This document shows positions 10,372-33,327 of a stretch of DNA of 64,000 nucleotides, piece by piece. This DNA is from Ignavibacteriota bacterium (GTDB lineage: Bacteria; Bacteroidota; Ignavibacteria; Palsa-1295). The first letter of the stretch is position 1. Each line of letters begins with the position of its first letter. The position numbers and the translations under genes are program-made. The stretch spans positions 160,001-224,000 of the forward strand of contig CAWBEI010000002.1 in assembly GCA_963787835.1 (NCBI GenBank). Direction: 5' to 3'. The notes under the pieces were generated by a model. The model had not been told where the DNA came from and searched no databases. It saw only the letters and a list, made by a program, of their open reading frames with translations.

Positions 10372-11241
10372 CTAAACTCCGCTACGGTTAGTGAATGCGG
10401 ATAGAAGCATCTTCAATTTTTCAAGCATAGATAGCGTGGGCCGCTCCTCAATGGTATTCCCATTTATTGCTCGAATCTTCCCGATCATCATTCTTGCACC
10501 TGTTAGAACGGCACGAAGCTCCATTCGAAGGCGTCCGCTCACGCTTGCAGGAAGTGCAGCACCATTCGCGAGCAGTTGTTCGATTCTATCGCATTCGAAG
10601 AGGATCAATCTGTCCGTCATCGAAGAATTCAATACTTCATCGGCGGTTTCGATGCCGAATGACTGGAAATCTTCTCGTGGGAAATAGCAGCGATTCTGGG
10701 TAAGATCGTCTTTAGCATCCTGAAGAAAATTGATAAGTTGCAATGCGGTGCAAATATCGTTCGACCACCCTATTCGTTCCTGATCCCGATAGCCAAACAG
10801 CGCCAGCACTAACTGCCCCACGGGTTCGGCGGAACGCATGGTGTACCAGTGCAGATCATCATACGTATCGAAACGAACGTTGCCACGGGCATCGAATTCG
10901 AATGCATCGACCAGCATATCGAATGGCTGAATCGCAAGACTAAATTTTTGAACAGTATCCTGTAATGCGAGAAAGATGGAATCGCTGGGCTGCTCGTTCT
11001 TATAGATGGAATGAAGCATTGTGCGCCAATCTGCAAGCAAAACAAGCCGTTCTTCGCTCGAACGATGTGGGAGATCGGCAAAATCATCCGCGGTGCGCAT
11101 GAAGGCATAGAGCGCGTAGAAATACTTGCGAAGTTTGCCTGGAATCAGCACGGAGCCAACGGGAAAATTCTCGTAATGGCCAGTGGCAATTTGCCGGCAA
11201 TGTTCGTAGGCTTCGTTGGGGGATGGGTTTGTCACGCCCAA
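10372..11241 (-). CDS. hpnC: Squalene synthase HpnC
   Basis: HYENFPVGS, YAFMRTADDFAD, SAEPVGQLVL, ICTALQLINFLQD. Confidence 0.88.
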   Translation of the reverse strand: MGVTNPSPNEAYEHCRQIATGHYENFPVGSVLIPGKLRKYFYALYAFMRTADDFADLPHRSSEERLVLLADWRTMLHSIYKNEQPSDSIFLALQDTVQKFSLAIQPFDMLVDAFEFDARGNVRFDTYDDLHWYTMRSAEPVGQLVLALFGYRDQERIGWSNDICTALQLINFLQDAKDDLTQNRCYFPREDFQSFGIETADEVLNSSMTDRLILFECDRIEQLLANGAALPASVSGRLRMELRAVLTGARMMIGKIRAINGNTIEERPTLSMLEKLKMLLSAFTNRSGV

Positions 11242-11243
11242 TC

Positions 11244-11645
11244 CTACTTCAATAATGCGACAAAACCAGCTTGCTCAAAATGTTTATCGCCGGTGAGCGC
11301 TTCTTTAATACCCTGATCGCGCATGACGATAAAGGATGTGCAGTCTGTAAGTGACCATTCTTTATCAGAATGTCGATGATAATAATGGAGAGCATGGTCG
11401 AAAAGATCTCGACTGGCTTCGAGTACTTCACAGTGAGGTAGTGATCTTAAATAAAGGAAATAGTCGCGTGCTTGATCGCGTACTTCTGAACCGGCTAAAG
11501 CATCCGCTACTTCCATCAGTACCCAGTCGGTTGTGACGAGACTGGCCCGCATGGTTTTTGAAAACTCAATCACACGATCGTGATGTTGATCCTCCTGATT
11601 GATCCGAGCAATGAAATAATAAGCATCAGCAAAAAATACTCTCAT
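11244..11645 (-). CDS. vapC: PIN-domain toxin, VapC family
   Basis: FADAYYFIA...DQHH...WSLTDCTSFIVM...ALTGDKHFEQAGF. Confidence 0.9.
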   Translation of the reverse strand: MRVFFADAYYFIARINQEDQHHDRVIEFSKTMRASLVTTDWVLMEVADALAGSEVRDQARDYFLYLRSLPHCEVLEASRDLFDHALHYYHRHSDKEWSLTDCTSFIVMRDQGIKEALTGDKHFEQAGFVALLK

Positions 11646-11863
11646 TTTTTCGGATGCCCGTGGACGTAATGATCGATATTCGCCGCTAAGTCTGGCGGAA
11701 GATCAGTAGCAATGCCATCCCATTTCTTTAGCATTTCGTACAGCGTAGGGATTTCTTCCTCTTCAGGTATCACGCGCACGGTCATCCCATCCGGCCAGTC
11801 CACGTCAGGCGGCATGACAACGTGGCCTTTTTCGATTTTCGCTGTTATTGGTTGGTATGTCAT
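11642..11863 (-). CDS. Putative cognate antitoxin of the VapC toxin
   Basis: 73 aa upstream of vapC with an ATGA overlap; N-terminal beta-strand segment and C-terminal LPPDLAANIDHYVHG of the type seen in PIN-associated antitoxins. Confidence 0.75.
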   Translation of the reverse strand: MTYQPITAKIEKGHVVMPPDVDWPDGMTVRVIPEEEEIPTLYEMLKKWDGIATDLPPDLAANIDHYVHGHPKK

Positions 11864-11984
11864 AATATCACCATGTTTACAATAACGCAGGTTCAGAGTA
11901 GGAAATTCATTCCGTAAAGTTCAACCCCATGCAAGAAATGCCTCGGAGCCGAACGGCATTCATTTACGTTTAGGCGCTTGATAT

Positions 11985-13007
11985 ATGGAAGCTCGCCGAA
12001 ACGCCGCCTCAAGTCGTCAATCCGCTTGGATTCACCGGTTCGCTATTTTCACAGCAGTGTGCTGTTTTGCGCTGCTATTTATTGGTGGGCTTGTGACAAG
12101 CCATCAGGCCGGGCTATCCGTCCCCGACTGGCCGACGAGTTATGGCTGGAACATGTTCACCTTCCCGATGAAAGATTGGACGGGCAACATTTTTTACGAG
12201 CACACGCATCGGCTGTTCGCATCGTTCGTCGGCTTTCTTATTCTTGCTCTCGCGATCGTTCTGCAAATCTATGAGCCGCGCAAGTGGGTGAAGCGACTTG
12301 GGTGGTTCGCATTGGGTTGTGTGGTGATGCAAGGCGTTTTGGGTGGAATCACCGTGCTAACCTATCTTCCTCCTGCGGTTTCGAGCGCACATGCGGGGCT
12401 CGGGCAAGCGGTGTTTTGCTTAACCATCGGCATTGCAATGGTTACCGGTAAACGATGGGACAAACAAGGAACTAAGTGGAGTGAGCGGACGAAAGTTGGT
12501 GTTAGGATGCTTTCATTGATTACTGTATGCTGTATTTTCACTCAACTTATGATCGGTGCAGTGATGCGGCATACCTTTTCCGGCCTTGCTATCCCATCGT
12601 TCCCATTTGCACCGAATGGCAGTTTAATTCCCGATTTCACGTCCTTCGGCGTGGCGATCAATTTTACTCACCGCGTTGGTGCATTTGTGGTTACGATCAT
12701 GATGTTCCTTACAGCGCGCGCTATCTTTCGGTGGTATCCACGGGAAAGATCGCTGGTATTTCCCATGATGTTTGCCATGCTCCTGCTTGGCATTCAGATC
12801 ATGCTTGGCGCCATCACAATATGGAGCCAGAAAGCTGTTACGCCGACCACACTTCACGTCTCCTGTGGCGCGGCTATTCTGGGAACGATGGTTTATATTA
12901 TGGTAAAAAGCCGGCACATGTTGGCGGCTAAGGCAGAGAACGTGACCTATGCCAGCGAAGGGAGACATACTTTAAGCGAGAAAATAGCTTCGGCATCGGT
13001 AAAATAA
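11985..13007 (+). CDS. ctaA: Heme A synthase (COX15/CtaA family)
   Basis: [21 protein letters not shown], conserved His in TM helices (SAHAG, FTHR, TLHV). Confidence 0.88.
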   Translation: MEARRNAASSRQSAWIHRFAIFTAVCCFALLFIGGLVTSHQAGLSVPDWPTSYGWNMFTFPMKDWTGNIFYEHTHRLFASFVGFLILALAIVLQIYEPRKWVKRLGWFALGCVVMQGVLGGITVLTYLPPAVSSAHAGLGQAVFCLTIGIAMVTGKRWDKQGTKWSERTKVGVRMLSLITVCCIFTQLMIGAVMRHTFSGLAIPSFPFAPNGSLIPDFTSFGVAINFTHRVGAFVVTIMMFLTARAIFRWYPRERSLVFPMMFAMLLLGIQIMLGAITIWSQKAVTPTTLHVSCGAAILGTMVYIMVKSRHMLAAKAENVTYASEGRHTLSEKIASASVK

Positions 13008-13913
13008 ATGGAGAATACTGCAAAGCTTGATTCCCCGGCAGCCCCACCATCCTTCGATTGGCGGCAGCTTCTGCGGGATTTCTACGATCTTTCGAAACCT
13101 GGCATTGGATTTTATTCCCTGCTAACAACAGCCACCTCGTTCTGGCTTGCCTCCACGGAATTTAATCTCGTCCTTTTCATTCACACGATGATCGCAACCG
13201 GGCTTGTAACCTGTGGCGGCGGCGCGTTGAATCAAGTGATCGAGATCGAGGCAGATTCTCAGATGCGGCGTACCGAGAAGCGTCCGCTTCCATCTGGCAG
13301 AGTGTCACCTACTGCCGGCCTTGCGTTCGGGGTACTTGCATCTCTGGCTGGGGCGGTTTATATGCTAACCTTTGTTGGAAGTTTGGCAAGTATTCTTGCC
13401 ATTCTGACACTTCTTGGATATTTATTCGTCTATACTCCGCTGAAGAAACGGACGCATCTTTCCACGCTTGTGGGTGCGTTCCCGGGAGCAGTTCCCATCC
13501 TGATCGGCTGGGCGGCCGCGCGCGGGTCGCTGAATGTAGAGGCATGGTCGTTGTTTGCAATATTGTTCCTGTGGCAGATCCCCCATTTCCTCGCCATTGC
13601 GTGGATGTACCGTAAGGATTACGCCCGCGCAGGGTTCCCGATGCTCACCGTTATCGATCCGGAAGGCTCCCGTGTCGCCTTTCAAGCCCTGAGTTACACG
13701 CTTGTCCTTATTCCTGTCAGTTTATTACCGTCGCTTCTGAAATTGACAGGGCCGATCTATTTCGGCGGAGCATTGCTATTGGGAGTCGGCTTTACCATCG
13801 CCGCAATTCGCATCGTGAGTGCGCGCACGAATACCACTGCGAAACAACTGCTCTTTGCCTCGATCATTTATTTGCCGGTTCTGCTCGCACTGATGGCGAT
13901 CGATAAGCAATGA
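13008..13913 (+). CDS. ctaB: Protoheme IX farnesyltransferase (heme O synthase)
   Basis: DSQMRRTEKRPLPSG, YTPLKK, WQIPHFLAIAW, DYARAGFPML. Confidence 0.95.
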   Translation: MENTAKLDSPAAPPSFDWRQLLRDFYDLSKPGIGFYSLLTTATSFWLASTEFNLVLFIHTMIATGLVTCGGGALNQVIEIEADSQMRRTEKRPLPSGRVSPTAGLAFGVLASLAGAVYMLTFVGSLASILAILTLLGYLFVYTPLKKRTHLSTLVGAFPGAVPILIGWAAARGSLNVEAWSLFAILFLWQIPHFLAIAWMYRKDYARAGFPMLTVIDPEGSRVAFQALSYTLVLIPVSLLPSLLKLTGPIYFGGALLLGVGFTIAAIRIVSARTNTTAKQLLFASIIYLPVLLALMAIDKQ

Positions 13914-24660: not shown

Positions 24661-25098
24661 TTAATGATCGCCGCTCATCATTTTTTGAATTCTTGCGATA
24701 TGTCTTCCTCCTTCGAATGAAGTCGATAGCCAAATCTCTACGATGTTGAGTGCTATTTCCTGCGAGATCATACGTTCCCCCAAAGAGAGCACATTTGCAT
24801 CGTTATGGCGGCGTGAAGCGCTCGCCGTTTCGTCATTCCAACAAAGCGCGCACCGCACGCCATGCACTTTATTCGCTACCATCGCCTCGCCGTTCCCGGA
24901 ACCTCCCAACACGATGCCTCGCTCGCATTCGCCATTAGCAACGGATTCGGCGGCTGGGCGTATGAAGTCAGGATAGTCCACCGGAGCCGTGCTGGACGTG
25001 CCAAAATCCTTCACGGTATGACCGGCTGCGATCAGCCACGATTTGATGGCCTCCTTGTAGGTAAAACCAGCATGGTCGCTGGCGATGGCAATGGTCAT
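24661..25098 (-). CDS. rpiB: Ribose-5-phosphate isomerase B
   Basis: SDHAG, DYPD, GGSGNGE, ANKV, RRHNDANVL, FEGGRH..RI. Confidence 0.93.
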   Translation of the reverse strand: MTIAIASDHAGFTYKEAIKSWLIAAGHTVKDFGTSSTAPVDYPDFIRPAAESVANGECERGIVLGGSGNGEAMVANKVHGVRCALCWNDETASASRRHNDANVLSLGERMISQEIALNIVEIWLSTSFEGGRHIARIQKMMSGDH

Positions 25099-29569: not shown

Positions 29570-29633
29570 CGGAATTTTCGAGGGGAATGTGTGGAATGGG
29601 GAAATACCTTACTTTACCATTGTTCTTGACATC

Positions 29634-29740
29634 GTCATTGCGAGGAGCATTTGGCGATCGAAGAGAGCCAAATGCGACGAAGCAATCCCTCTCCATTGAA
29701 TAGATTGCTTCGTCGTCCCTCCGGGACTCCTCGCAATGAC
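29634..29740. repeat. Palindromic repeat family B, full copy (GTCATTGCGAGGAG...CTCCTCGCAATGAC)
   Basis: Terminal inverted repeat with inner CGACGAAGCAATC/GATTGCTTCGTCG. Confidence 0.85.
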
Positions 29741-29750
29741 AGGGTAAACG

Positions 29751-30206
29751 TTATTGCTCCAACGCCCAGACCCGCGCAACCTGCTCCTTGTTCCACGCGC
29801 TTTGGGCATCGCCGGAAGAAATGGGCGTAGCGAACCAGGCATCGAGGATCTCCTTCATTACCGGTACCGGAGTAGCGCGAAGACTTAGCGCAAGCACATT
29901 CGCGTGATTGAAAATGCGGGCGCCCCGAGCAGTTTCGGCGTCTCCGGCAAGAGCGCAGCGAACGCCAGCGATCTTATTTGCCGCGATAGCGACACCCGTT
30001 CCAGTCCAGCAGCAGACGATCCCTTCCACTGCGCTGCCATCGGCCACGGCACGCGCCACATCTGCTGCGACGAGCGGCCAATCGCGGTTCGCCTCTCCGA
30101 TCGTCAGTGGACCAAATGCTACAAGCGTGTGCCCGCGATTCTCAAGCTCGGATTTGAGCGCTTGCGTTAGTTCTGTTGCCGTGTCGCTGCCGATGGATAT
30201 TTTCAT
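29751..30206 (-). CDS. RpiB/LacA/LacB family sugar-phosphate isomerase, divergent paralogue
   Basis: CCWTGTGVAIAANK, ARIFNHANVLALS; lacks the SDH His and the C-terminal GGRH. Confidence 0.85.
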   Translation of the reverse strand: MKISIGSDTATELTQALKSELENRGHTLVAFGPLTIGEANRDWPLVAADVARAVADGSAVEGIVCCWTGTGVAIAANKIAGVRCALAGDAETARGARIFNHANVLALSLRATPVPVMKEILDAWFATPISSGDAQSAWNKEQVARVWALEQ

Positions 30207-30333
30207 GTTTTCTGAAAGTGTGTAAACCGGGTTTTAACCCGGTTCAGAATGATCGATCATGCTTTTTCAATTCGCTGGAATAGGCGCATATTATGTGCCA
30301 GTTTTGCATGGCGGAACTCAATAAAAACATTGA

Positions 30334-30558
30334 TTACACTTTTTTAAATGCATTGTCGATGAGAAGGATGCCGGGATGAACTCCTAACGCATCGGCAAGT
30401 TGACATAAATTTGAAAGAGTAAGATTCATCTCTCCCCTTTCCACCGCGCCGATATATGTTCTTTTGAAACCAGATTTTAATGCGAAACCCTCCTGAGAAA
30501 AGCCCTTAGCCTCTCTCAAAAATCGTATATTTCTACCCACTATTTTCTGCATATCCAT
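30334..30558 (-). CDS. XRE family HTH transcriptional regulator
   Basis: GRNIRFLREAKGFSQEGFA...RTYIGAVERGEMNLTLSNL..LADALGV; start ATG 30558 or 30552. Confidence 0.9.
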   Translation of the reverse strand: MDMQKIVGRNIRFLREAKGFSQEGFALKSGFKRTYIGAVERGEMNLTLSNLCQLADALGVHPGILLIDNAFKKV

Positions 30559-30612
30559 GCTGTAAAAGGATGGAATATGAAGGGGCGGTAAAATTACGCC
30601 ATTCAAGCATGG

Positions 30613-30635
30613 CGACAAAAAATGTCGTATATTTG
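30613..30635 (+). promoter_or_regulatory. Palindromic operator CGACA-N5-TGTCG abutting a TATATTTG -7 element
   Basis: CGACA 30613-30617, TGTCG 30623-30627, TATATTTG 30628-30635, between the divergent XRE and secreted-protein genes. Confidence 0.6.
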
Positions 30636-30688
30636 TATTGACTTTTGAGATTCAATACTTCAAACATTCTATATCTGGTAGGGTTTTT

Positions 30689-31693
30689 ATGAAACGAATC
30701 ATTTTCCCCGTTCTGCTTCTCAGCATGGTTTTCGTGGCTTCGATAGCGCGAGCGCAAGCTCCGACTTACTATGGAGCATTGCTTTATAGCATGCACGCTG
30801 ATACTTCTGAGCCTCCGCTATACACGGGCCAACCAACGGCTGTAACAACGGCGTACCTCTGGCTCGATGAGGCGATGAGGTTTTATAACGAATCTACAAT
30901 TGAACATTTTATAAATGCACTTTCGTGGGATGATACCCCCCAGACGATAGCAAGCAATTTTTATCAGATCCAACATGATAACCCTCTCTCGTTCTATGTA
31001 TGGTCTGGAGATCGGATGAGACCAAACCCCTATAAGGCTGAACCAAGCATGGCTCGTGAATTTTTCGAAAATTTCGTTTCCACGAGCGCAGGAGACACGG
31101 CCCGAACGAGTTGGCTTCTGTCAGCAGATATTATCGCGGATATTACTGTTTCAGACACATTGTGCAGATTCGATCCCACTGCAATGAGTGTGAAAGACTG
31201 GGTTTTGGTAAATTCGACCGTACTCGACACCATAAAAGGTAAAAAAATTCCAGAGTGTTCTGGTTATTTCAGAACGGGAAAGAAGATCGAATTGCCCCTA
31301 AGCACCCCCACATCAGCCTTGCCAGTCTATGCTGTCGCTGCAAACGTTGGCACATGCCTTCAATTCCAATATTCACCGGAAGGGCATCGAAGTCTTGACG
31401 AAGATATGCTTAATAATTCCCTAAAGGATTCATTGGGAGGATGGTGGATCAAACCAGGTAAAGAGTATATTGTTTTTCTCTCTTTCGTGGGAATCGGAGC
31501 GGACACTTCTTCAGCATATTTTACCACTTGTCCGTGTAATGGTATTACCGGCCATAGTGGGGGAATGTATTTGGTTAAGAGTGGGGTCGTACAGGATCCG
31601 TATGATGATTTTGGGTTAGGTGGAACTGGTTTGACTGTAGCCGCTTGGAAATCCCGGTTGCGAGCGCGAATTAACGCAATTATTACTCCTTGA
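30689..31693 (+). CDS. Secreted hypothetical protein with a possible TIMP/NTR-like OB-fold C-terminal domain
   Basis: Signal peptide MKRIIF...ARAQ; pattern ADIIADITV...VLDTIKG...IKPGKEYIVFL; several Cys. The fold call is inference. Confidence 0.6.
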   Translation: MKRIIFPVLLLSMVFVASIARAQAPTYYGALLYSMHADTSEPPLYTGQPTAVTTAYLWLDEAMRFYNESTIEHFINALSWDDTPQTIASNFYQIQHDNPLSFYVWSGDRMRPNPYKAEPSMAREFFENFVSTSAGDTARTSWLLSADIIADITVSDTLCRFDPTAMSVKDWVLVNSTVLDTIKGKKIPECSGYFRTGKKIELPLSTPTSALPVYAVAANVGTCLQFQYSPEGHRSLDEDMLNNSLKDSLGGWWIKPGKEYIVFLSFVGIGADTSSAYFTTCPCNGITGHSGGMYLVKSGVVQDPYDDFGLGGTGLTVAAWKSRLRARINAIITP

Positions 31694-31728
31694 AATTATC
31701 CATTAAATATTAGAAGTGGAGTGATTTA

Positions 31729-33318
31729 ATGAAACGCATTATCGCATTAGTTCCATTAGTGTTACTTTTGATTTCGAATGAAACATCTGCACAGGTGAGA
31801 TGCACCACCCCGTGCTGGGAGCAAAGCTTCCCTTATCTCTTTTGTGATCCCAGATCAGGTATTCAATCAGTAGGTTGCTCTACTAACCCGAATGACGATC
31901 CGCAGGGAATTCCTACAAAAGCGTACATACCCGGCTGTGTATCGATCTATTACGAATTTAACTTGGATACGCTTTGGCAACCTTCTGATCCGATTCCGGT
32001 TTTTACTGAGACCCCACCGGATAGAGAAACAATTTATGAGGCGTATGTAGATAATCTGAGCTCGTATCCCGGACCGCCCTGGTTCAATCCTTTTGACCCT
32101 GATTCGGACGTTTGGAGTGATGACTATTCGGCTTACGTGGCTGCTACACTGCAATGGGATAAGGACACTTCGAATTTTTTCGCTGGCCTCGGATGGGAAA
32201 TGATTGATACGTCGGGCATGGATAGTAATGCTCAAGGTGCCGTCGTAAATTTTTATATTGGCGACTATAATAACTTGTTCGCAGTATATGATAACGAAGA
32301 GACCGCGTATGAAGACAGTTTGAATGCTTACAATAGAGGCACGGATGTTCACTATGTGCAGCCATGGAACGATGTTCAGGCGGACTCAGATGCACAACAT
32401 GCTCTTGATAATTGGCTTGGGGTATGTCACCCGGCAATAAGCTCAGATGGGCCAGGATGTTGCATTCACGTCAATCTTGATGCCAATCCTAATGATTTTA
32501 ATCCAGCGGCGACAGACTTTGCTGAAACTCGTAGTGATAGCAATCAAGAGGGATTTCCAAATTGTGATGAAGCTTCCTGTCCCGACTTATACAGATTTAT
32601 CAACGTCAATGTATCTCCGGCTTTTCTTTATCAATCTAATAATCCGCTAACATGGCATTCCGACCCTGGTTATAAACTTCATTCTTCCCCGAAAAGGATT
32701 TGGTACACTGGGACCGGTTTGCCTTTTATGCCTAATATTTATTATTATGGCGGTTACAACGTTCTTAGCTTCTATCAATTGATGGAGCATGAGATAGGGC
32801 ATTGGCTTGGGCTTATGCACCCAGAATCCGGCCCCCCCAATGGAAATTCTACTTATGCCTGTCCGAATTGCTATACTAACAATCCTTATGTTACCCCTGC
32901 TCAAAAATATAATCCATCGGGTTTCTGGACAGTTATGGCTCAAGGTAACAATATTCAGAATGACACAGCTCTCCTTCTGACCAACGAAGATAGCTGTCAA
33001 TTTAAGAAGCTCTATTGTGAGGAGGATGTATCTGTTAAGCTTGCTCCGCAAAGAGACAACTGGTTCAATCCAGAGGTCTTTCCGAATCCATCCAATGGCG
33101 GGATGACGCTGACCTTCACCAGCATAGCACCAAGCCTCACACAGATAGCGGTCTATGATGTGCTCGGCAATGAGGTGAAGGAAGTATGTAATGGGTATAT
33201 GAATCCTGGGCCTTACTCCATTCCTCTCGGGACTGAATCATTACCATCGGGTAATTACGTGTGTCGTGTTCGTGTAGGCGATATGGTAAGTTATATTAAT
33301 CTGGCAATTACAAAGTAA
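31729..33318 (+). CDS. T9SS-secreted zinc metallopeptidase (metzincin clan)
   Basis: Signal peptide, HEIGHWLGLMH (HExxHxxGxxH), probable Met-turn TVMA, CTD VFPNP...VYDVLGNEV...SGNYVCRV. Confidence 0.88.
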   Translation: MKRIIALVPLVLLLISNETSAQVRCTTPCWEQSFPYLFCDPRSGIQSVGCSTNPNDDPQGIPTKAYIPGCVSIYYEFNLDTLWQPSDPIPVFTETPPDRETIYEAYVDNLSSYPGPPWFNPFDPDSDVWSDDYSAYVAATLQWDKDTSNFFAGLGWEMIDTSGMDSNAQGAVVNFYIGDYNNLFAVYDNEETAYEDSLNAYNRGTDVHYVQPWNDVQADSDAQHALDNWLGVCHPAISSDGPGCCIHVNLDANPNDFNPAATDFAETRSDSNQEGFPNCDEASCPDLYRFINVNVSPAFLYQSNNPLTWHSDPGYKLHSSPKRIWYTGTGLPFMPNIYYYGGYNVLSFYQLMEHEIGHWLGLMHPESGPPNGNSTYACPNCYTNNPYVTPAQKYNPSGFWTVMAQGNNIQNDTALLLTNEDSCQFKKLYCEEDVSVKLAPQRDNWFNPEVFPNPSNGGMTLTFTSIAPSLTQIAVYDVLGNEVKEVCNGYMNPGPYSIPLGTESLPSGNYVCRVRVGDMVSYINLAITK

Positions 33319-33327
33319 TAGCAAAAT

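Follow-up and report, generated by a model that had tools for sequence, protein, structure and literature searches.

A predicted NTR/TIMP-type barrel protein encoded upstream of a metzincin tagged for type IX secretion in an Ignavibacteriota bacterium: a possible periplasmic partner

Several bacteria encode a secreted metalloprotease next to a dedicated partner protein, and such pairs provide the frame for two adjacent genes, here called gene 1 and gene 2, of a 64,000-nucleotide stretch (the window) from an Ignavibacteriota bacterium (assembly GCA_963787835.1, contig CAWBEI010000002.1, positions 160,001 to 224,000 of the forward strand). In Listeria monocytogenes, the XRE-controlled metzincin Mtz is encoded with the TIMP-like lipoprotein Tim and removes about 50 N-terminal residues of Tim, leaving the TIMP-like core, as described in the excerpts of Boichis et al. 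2021 (PMC8235301). Potempins of Tannerella forsythia, as in the PotA-karilysin pair, inhibit KLIKK-peptidases that are encoded downstream and exported through type IX secretion (T9SS), according to the excerpted text of Ksiazek et al. 2022 (PMC9890683). In the window, gene 1 encodes a protein with a predicted NTR/TIMP-type barrel and gene 2 a T9SS-tagged metzincin, and gene 1 is regarded here, with a probability of about 0.5, as a co-encoded periplasmic inhibitor or escort of the gene 2 protease. A preliminary description of this DNA had put the pair forward as the best candidate for an undescribed system, which was too strong, because an XRE-controlled metzincin/TIMP-like pair (PMC8235301) and pairs with an upstream inhibitor of oligonucleotide/oligosaccharide-binding (OB) fold (PMC9890683) are already published. 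The features, in window coordinates, are as follows.

30209..33327, no strand assigned: the inserted cassette as a whole, with rpiB on one side and a BNR-repeat gene on the other, by comparison with the empty site of a relative
30334..30558, minus strand: XRE-family HTH regulator of 74 amino acids (HTH_3, E 2e-13), divergent from the pair
30559..30688, no strand assigned: divergent intergenic region of 130 bp, GC content 0.35, presumed promoter region
30689..31693, plus strand: gene 1, 334 amino acids, with signal peptide 1-22, arm 23-49, helical domain 50-133 and barrel 136-334
31094..31690, plus strand: part of gene 1 coding for the predicted NTR/TIMP-fold domain, residues 136-334 (VIA-align)
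31729..33318, plus strand: gene 2, 529 amino acids, with signal peptide 1-21, catalytic domain 22-432 and T9SS type A C-terminal domain (CTD) 446-529
31939..32373, plus strand: acidic, predicted helical insert of gene 2, residues 71-215
32788..32820, plus strand: zinc-binding motif HEIGHWLGLMH of gene 2, residues 354-364, followed by the Met-turn M403

Judged on the models, the present pair appears to combine the potempin layout with a TIMP-type barrel and an added helical domain. As with potempins, gene 1 lies immediately upstream of a T9SS peptidase gene (here with a gap of 35 bp), and the OB-fold barrels of PotA, PotC and PotD, the presence of several pairs per genome and the orphan look-alikes are further likenesses to the excerpted account. 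Potempins, however, are described there as outer-membrane lipoproteins of 98-132 residues whose peptidases are zymogens, whereas the mature gene 1 product has 312 residues, is no lipoprotein and finds its matches among NTR-type barrels. Its membership of the potempins was rejected on the mature length and the missing lipobox, and no potempin stands among the 50 structure matches listed for its barrel. The likeness to Mtz-Tim, as far as that system is described in the excerpts, consists of a secreted metzincin with a predicted TIMP-like partner, an adjacent XRE regulator and a mobile context. In Listeria, however, the protease precedes the partner while here the partner comes first, and Tim is a lipoprotein of a Gram-positive host that is cleaved by Mtz; here an extra helical domain is present, the lipobox is absent, and the protease is rich in cysteines and carries a T9SS CTD, Tim being compared by its description. 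Phage proteins gave no match to the gene 1 barrel or to a related matrixin, and the phage A500 region holds no Mtz-Tim pair. Pseudomonas AprA/AprI resembles the pair, as read here, in being a secreted metzincin with a co-encoded periplasmic guard, and AprA is also a fold match to gene 2, if a weaker one (Z 9.0). AprA, however, uses type I secretion, and AprI is not TIMP-like in structure according to the excerpts of PMC8235301. With animal TIMP and NTR proteins gene 1 shares the predicted barrel fold (Z 9.1 to 6.7) and a partner protease predicted to have the fold of matrix metalloproteinases (MMPs), and it differs from them in lacking Cys1-X-Cys3 and any Pfam match and in its extra helical domain.

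The family of gene 1 (E<=1e-3) comprises 482 representatives when clustered at 50% identity. Neither gene 1 nor, except for one stray match, 120 members of its family match any Pfam or NCBIfam model, the Pfam families TIMP, NTR and NtA are found in 0/120 members at E<=0.01, and the PDB holds no sequence related to gene 1. The residue pattern by which the preliminary description had linked gene 1 to TIMP/NTR-like OB folds is borne out as a conserved one, comprising I149, K183, G184, Y260, F263 and L264, with K183 present in 120/120 rows. The structure check proposed there likewise favours the fold, since residues 136-334 of the model (predicted local distance difference test score, pLDDT, 88.5), which form a beta domain behind an arm and a helical domain, are modelled as an NTR/TIMP-type barrel. 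When this barrel was compared with 48,161 chains, the top eight rows were all NTR modules and the first unrelated row had Z 6.3. The best match was agrin NtA (Z 9.1, root-mean-square deviation (rmsd) 2.7 over 115 aligned residues, VIA-align), with N-TIMP-3 (Z 7.4, rmsd 3.3, 115 aligned), complement C345C (Z 7.0-7.4), PCOLCE1 (7.2), meteorin (6.7) and TIMP-1 (5.4) as further matches. The background of the comparison tool lies at Z 7-8 and is exceeded by the best row alone, so that the case for the fold lies in the agreement of the rows. It draws further on Foldseek, which gave weak NTR matches at E 0.03-0.07 and nothing at E<=1e-3, and on the Atlas neighbours of gene 1, which are TIMP, NtA and NTR families at 0.81-0.86, a score of lead level.

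A fold of TIMP type does not make gene 1 a TIMP, a family classified as MEROPS I35. The zinc-binding element of TIMP is its free N-terminal Cys1-X-Cys3 (PMC4860685, excerpt). Mature gene 1 starts with Gln23 instead, a Cys-X-Cys within residues 16-45 occurs in 0/75 and 3/120 rows of the family, and residue 136, where the barrel starts, lies behind the helical domain. Because TIMP residues 5-6 align to gene 1 residues 136-137, in addition to the Gln start and the lack of Cys-X-Cys, gene 1 has no counterpart of the zinc-binding Cys1, and its identification as a TIMP was rejected in favour of a predicted TIMP-like fold without that N-terminus. As had been noted, gene 1 carries no CTD, and it also has no lipobox (a lipobox-like pattern occurs in 3/120 rows of the family). 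A 642-residue open frame elsewhere (L143:3027-4952) joins the gene 1 domain to about 250 further residues and has no protease adjacent.

For gene 2, the reading as a T9SS-exported metzincin is well founded in its motifs. HEIGHWLGLMH at residues 354-364 fits HExxHxxGxxH, and H354, E355, H358, G361, H364 and M403 are invariant in 21/21 close homologues; M403, the probable Met-turn, is present in 95% of 75 family rows, among which the zinc motif takes the form H-E-H-G-H in 57 and H-E-H-G-D in 8. As a chance control, HExxHxxGxxH was found in 2/14,090 six-frame open reading frames (ORFs) of the genome, both behind gene 1 paralogues. The many cysteines amount to 14 in residues 22-432. The T9SS CTD is recognized at residues 450-518 by TIGR04183 (29.2 bits against a cut-off of 23) and falls just under the cut-off of PF18962 (E 7.6e-6, 26.6 bits against 27); its model matches the PorU and mirolase CTD folds (Z 10.4), and such CTD matches take up the Foldseek list for gene 2. 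In the model (pLDDT 85), the catalytic part matches MMP-2 (Z 10.3, rmsd 4.0, 158 aligned), MMP-9 (10.2), MMP-12 (10.1), MMP-20 (9.6) and AprA. The Pfam matrixin model PF00413 matches 36/75 family members at E<=1e-3 and gene 2 itself at just E 0.02. Gene 2 is thus best described as a secreted zinc protease with a predicted MMP (matrixin-like) fold. Of the long acidic N-terminal region claimed previously, the acidity stands (26 D/E against 3 K/R in residues 71-215) and the position does not: in the model the stretch is an insert inside the catalytic domain, between its first strand and first helix, and the idea of a propeptide-like N-terminal extension was rejected for that reason. Residues 101-190 are gapped in more than 80% of the 75 family rows, so that the insert is specific to a subclade, and most relatives have 370-450 residues. 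MMP catalytic domains align to gene 2 from model residue 43-62, for which reason no MMP-type propeptide is evident, and the protease is apparently propeptide-less in that sense, a short pro-segment within residues 22-45 aside; residues 22-432 hold an even number of cysteines. The host has SprA, PorU and PorV genes scoring above cut-off and dozens of proteins with a T9SS CTD; GldN was not found in the genome by a search whose control was silent too.

The two genes are co-oriented, as first described, in an operon-like layout, and each starts with MKRII; their signal peptides were assigned from the sequence itself and from the Gln that opens the mature part, which is conserved in 84% of 113 gene 1 rows and 81% of 75 gene 2 rows. 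The co-occurrence of the two families, proposed as a check, is evident across genomes. In the reverse count, 81 protease matches were obtained in 38/301 genomes of the class, and gene 1 lies directly upstream of 77 of them. Of the other four, two are pieces at contig edges, one is a fragment, and one belongs to the first unit of an array of proteases and gene 1 copies; this class-wide scan scored six candidates per genome, and related genomes in it are not independent. A scan of the host family that scored 54 candidates in each genome gave 37/38. The forward count covered 120 fetched loci out of 150 gene 1 matches; four split matches were merged, and the copies of the host genome were set aside, as were four unlisted rows and the majority of the short fragments. 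A gene 2 homologue or metzincin follows directly at 76 of these loci, and three with a broken or cut protease and two in arrays bring the linked ones to 81; five lie at contig edges, and 34 (34/115 evaluable) have no protease nearby. In a quickly built tree of 110 rows, from which 10 broken, short or duplicate ones had been removed, such orphans are scattered, are often sisters of linked copies and are mostly intact (22 single and 6 tandem rows). This asymmetry of linkage, together with the scattering of orphans, is the pattern expected from repeated loss of a dangerous partner. Linkage is kept across several families of the class at a mean pairwise identity of about 26-27% in both protein families, and 74 distinct pairs were collected. 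Gene 1 occurs in 62/301 genomes of the class and in 14/14 other genomes of the genus, and a phylum sample of 401 yielded 10 positives, one of them, a weak one, outside the class. The protease core shows a mean identity of 0.49 as compared to 0.57 for gene 1, and is lower in 88% of 88 comparisons that are not independent.

Beyond the standard arrangement, a divergent short subfamily of gene 1 (hhalign 99.6%) precedes matrixin-like proteins of another architecture in 3/7 evaluable genomes, with the protease adjacent in G100, G278 and G260 and not in G026, G032, G193 and G228; G135, G214 and G082 could not be judged. Short-subfamily copies at L224:892-1305 and in L226 are preceded by an ORF that by eye looks AraC-like, without an XRE gene there. 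In one array (G051:C1:2052995-2060021; L134, L136, L128), three units of protease and gene 1 follow each other with their gene order alternating, the protease coming first. The host genome itself holds three pairs: the one described here, an intact one at C2:344980-347634 among insertion sequence (IS) genes, and one at C3:18878-21375 in which both genes are broken. The second intact pair is surrounded by transposase-like genes, presumably of IS1595 and IS1 type, and by short AT-rich ORFs (L001:5563-6483, 11177-11869 and 12286-13140).

In the proposed mechanism, the gene 1 product and the protease would both cross the inner membrane by the Sec route, and gene 1, lacking CTD and lipobox, would stay in the periplasm. 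There it would bind the protease and hold it inactive until export, after which the protease would leave the cell by means of its T9SS tag; having no MMP-type propeptide, the protease would need an inhibitor in trans. The contact would not follow the TIMP Cys1 mechanism and may use another surface, for example the helical domain, the arm at the N-terminus or the long hairpin of residues 148-183, and gene 1 copies that stand alone would be guards left behind or kept in reserve. An inhibitor or escort is favoured because the protease would pass the periplasm apparently without propeptide and rarely occurs without gene 1, while gene 1 outlives loss of the protease. It is further supported by the predicted folds, MMP with NTR/TIMP, which correspond to a known enzyme-inhibitor couple, by the faster divergence of the protease core, by the second matrixin-like architecture behind the short subfamily, and by the precedent of potempins as inhibitors of a downstream T9SS peptidase (PMC9890683, excerpt).

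Several observations weigh against this assignment. The absence of the TIMP zinc ligand is one, and the best fold match of gene 1 is agrin NtA; most of the top NTR matches (complement C345C, PCOLCE1, meteorin) are binding modules and not inhibitors. Proteases without the zinc motif are still found beside an intact gene 1 in 5/75 rows (FGxxFxxGxxD three times and two other forms), and intact-looking proteases follow a broken gene 1 at two loci, G276:C9 and G027:C1:778574; G276 and G027 hold other gene 1 copies, and the broken loci may be assembly errors. The reverse count is partly circular, its protease profile having been made from linked copies, and an obligatory chaperone would account for the asymmetry of linkage just as well. 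In the Listeria system, the one bacterial pair of metzincin and TIMP-like protein that has been tested, the protease cleaves its partner and the excerpts of PMC8235301 do not show inhibition. Two further analyses weigh neither for nor against it. Complex prediction with gene 2 residues 22-432 and gene 1 residues 23-334 gave 0.70, 0.28 and 0.00 in three runs against a mark of 0.32, with the controls not folded. Inter-protein covariation over 75 paired rows gave no signal at such depth (best z 7.5 as compared to 6.3-8.4 in 10 shuffles), and the correlation of distances between the two families, at Pearson 0.75 and Spearman 0.33, was set aside as a sign of contact, because it reflects shared inheritance. 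The FGVGFWYGLPD clade (L108, L109 and L116, from G077 and G104), whose members are intact, CTD-tagged and paired with gene 1, provides candidate pseudo-proteases.

It is conceivable, if unlikely, that the protease instead acts on gene 1, cutting its product, for example at the junction of helical domain and barrel (about residues 131-137), so that the active species would be an NTR fragment set free by the cut, either by itself or together with the protease. Trimming of Tim to its TIMP-like core, XRE control and a mobile context are all found in Listeria according to the excerpts of PMC8235301, and gene 1 likewise has a separable N-terminal domain before its barrel, with copies at variable sites. 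The junction, however, is weakly conserved (best columns 41% at the S134 equivalent and 53% at the P135 equivalent), and the covarying pairs 27-304, 31-307 and 31-150 of a shallow alignment hint that the arm packs on the barrel, in which case one cut might not free it; moreover, gene 1 has no outer-membrane export tag and is retained beside motif-less proteases and on its own. A low probability is likewise assigned to gene 1 being a dedicated folding chaperone, a detached prodomain or a stable co-subunit, which would fold the disulfide-rich protease or exit with it, whether catalytically active or not. The 14 cysteines of the catalytic domain, the near-absence of proteases without gene 1 (77/81), the intact pairs with motif-less proteases in G077 and G104 and the prevalence of interaction modules among the top NTR matches fit such a role, which is harder to reconcile with the gene 1 loci (34/115) that have no client nearby and are mostly intact, with the two intact-looking proteases behind a broken gene 1, and with PotA, which has no effect on maturation or secretion of its protease in the excerpts of PMC9890683.

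That the genes travel together as a cassette without interacting, the NTR module of gene 1 binding some other envelope or external ligand, is very improbable. Orphans, tandem arrays, the fusion of 642 residues to another domain and the short-subfamily genomes without adjacent protease (4/7 evaluable) would be explained in this way, but the linkage persists at about 26-27% identity over several families of the class, and it survives both the reversed gene order in the G051 array and the change to a second protease architecture. A role of gene 1 as periplasmic inhibitor or escort is preferred among the readings.

Regulation and mobility were also part of the preliminary description. The divergent XRE gene is indeed present, on the opposite strand 130 bp upstream of gene 1, and from this arrangement it likely controls the pair in the host genus. 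With a profile seeded from close relatives, a divergent XRE gene was found at 15/32 loci of the genus as compared to 0/88 loci elsewhere; XRE control is hence no general trait, and the regulator was rejected as a defining part of the system, being absent from 88/88 loci outside the genus. Promoter-like sites in 30559-30688 are at chance level (8 against 6.7 +- 2.4 in shuffles), and no convincing operator repeat was found. The GC profile agrees with the described AT-richness: the cassette has a GC content of 0.439, its two flanks have 0.510 and 0.516, and 1192 windows of the genome give 0.501 +- 0.038, with 0.7% of them as low as the cassette; the ends of the 64-kb window are as AT-rich.

The claim that the pair was acquired holds for the site and not for the family. 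In the relative G224, rpiB and the BNR-repeat gene lie about 55 bp apart with no cassette between them, and in G089 and G276 the site is filled by a single other gene, encoding an alternative exported protein (L279:1050-2069 and L280:1084-2022), which gives the site the look of a hotspot for insertions. For the gene 1 family, a recent foreign origin was rejected, because all 15 genomes of the genus carry it, at different sites; only the site of this cassette is new, and the family has long been held by the lineage. None of the 180 fetched loci matched the four flanking proteins of the window (E<=1e-20), which, together with the sites of G224, G089 and G276, indicates that the cassette moves between sites in this lineage. 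At L149, an orphan gene 1 is followed by a protein that by eye resembles the exported protein of this site. Parts of the cassette recur identically in short DNA contigs, which may derive from the same sample, and no RNA data set was listed as holding the cassette. Records of related sequences are labelled Candidatus Kapaibacterium, Ignavibacteriota or Bacteroidetes. Nearby, a palindromic element resembling repetitive extragenic palindromes lies at 29626-29745 between glgA and rpiB and has 73 blastn matches of >=35 nt in the genome, and two genes of the RpiB/LacAB family are located 5 kb apart, at 24661-25098 (by resemblance) and 29751-30206 (by Pfam).

Searches of open-access literature, covering listings and the beginnings of abstracts, showed neither the gene 1 family nor its architecture. 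A wider proposal, possible but doubtful at present, would make it a large bacterial family of MMP inhibitors with a TIMP/NTR barrel devoid of the zinc ligand, part of a T9SS protease/immunity system that is polymorphic, present in multiple copies and accompanied by orphan immunity genes, in which case the MMP-NTR partnership would be an old bacterial one and not an invention of animals. If the Mtz-Tim-like processing were true instead, a little-understood mechanism would extend to a Gram-negative T9SS setting. If gene 1 does inhibit its partner, it would offer a new type of scaffold for inhibiting MMP-fold proteases by a mechanism other than that of TIMP, the 74 cognate pairs would be natural material for the study of specificity, a family of 482 clusters outside all Pfam and NCBIfam models would gain a function, and the finding would bear on the origin of the MMP/TIMP partnership.

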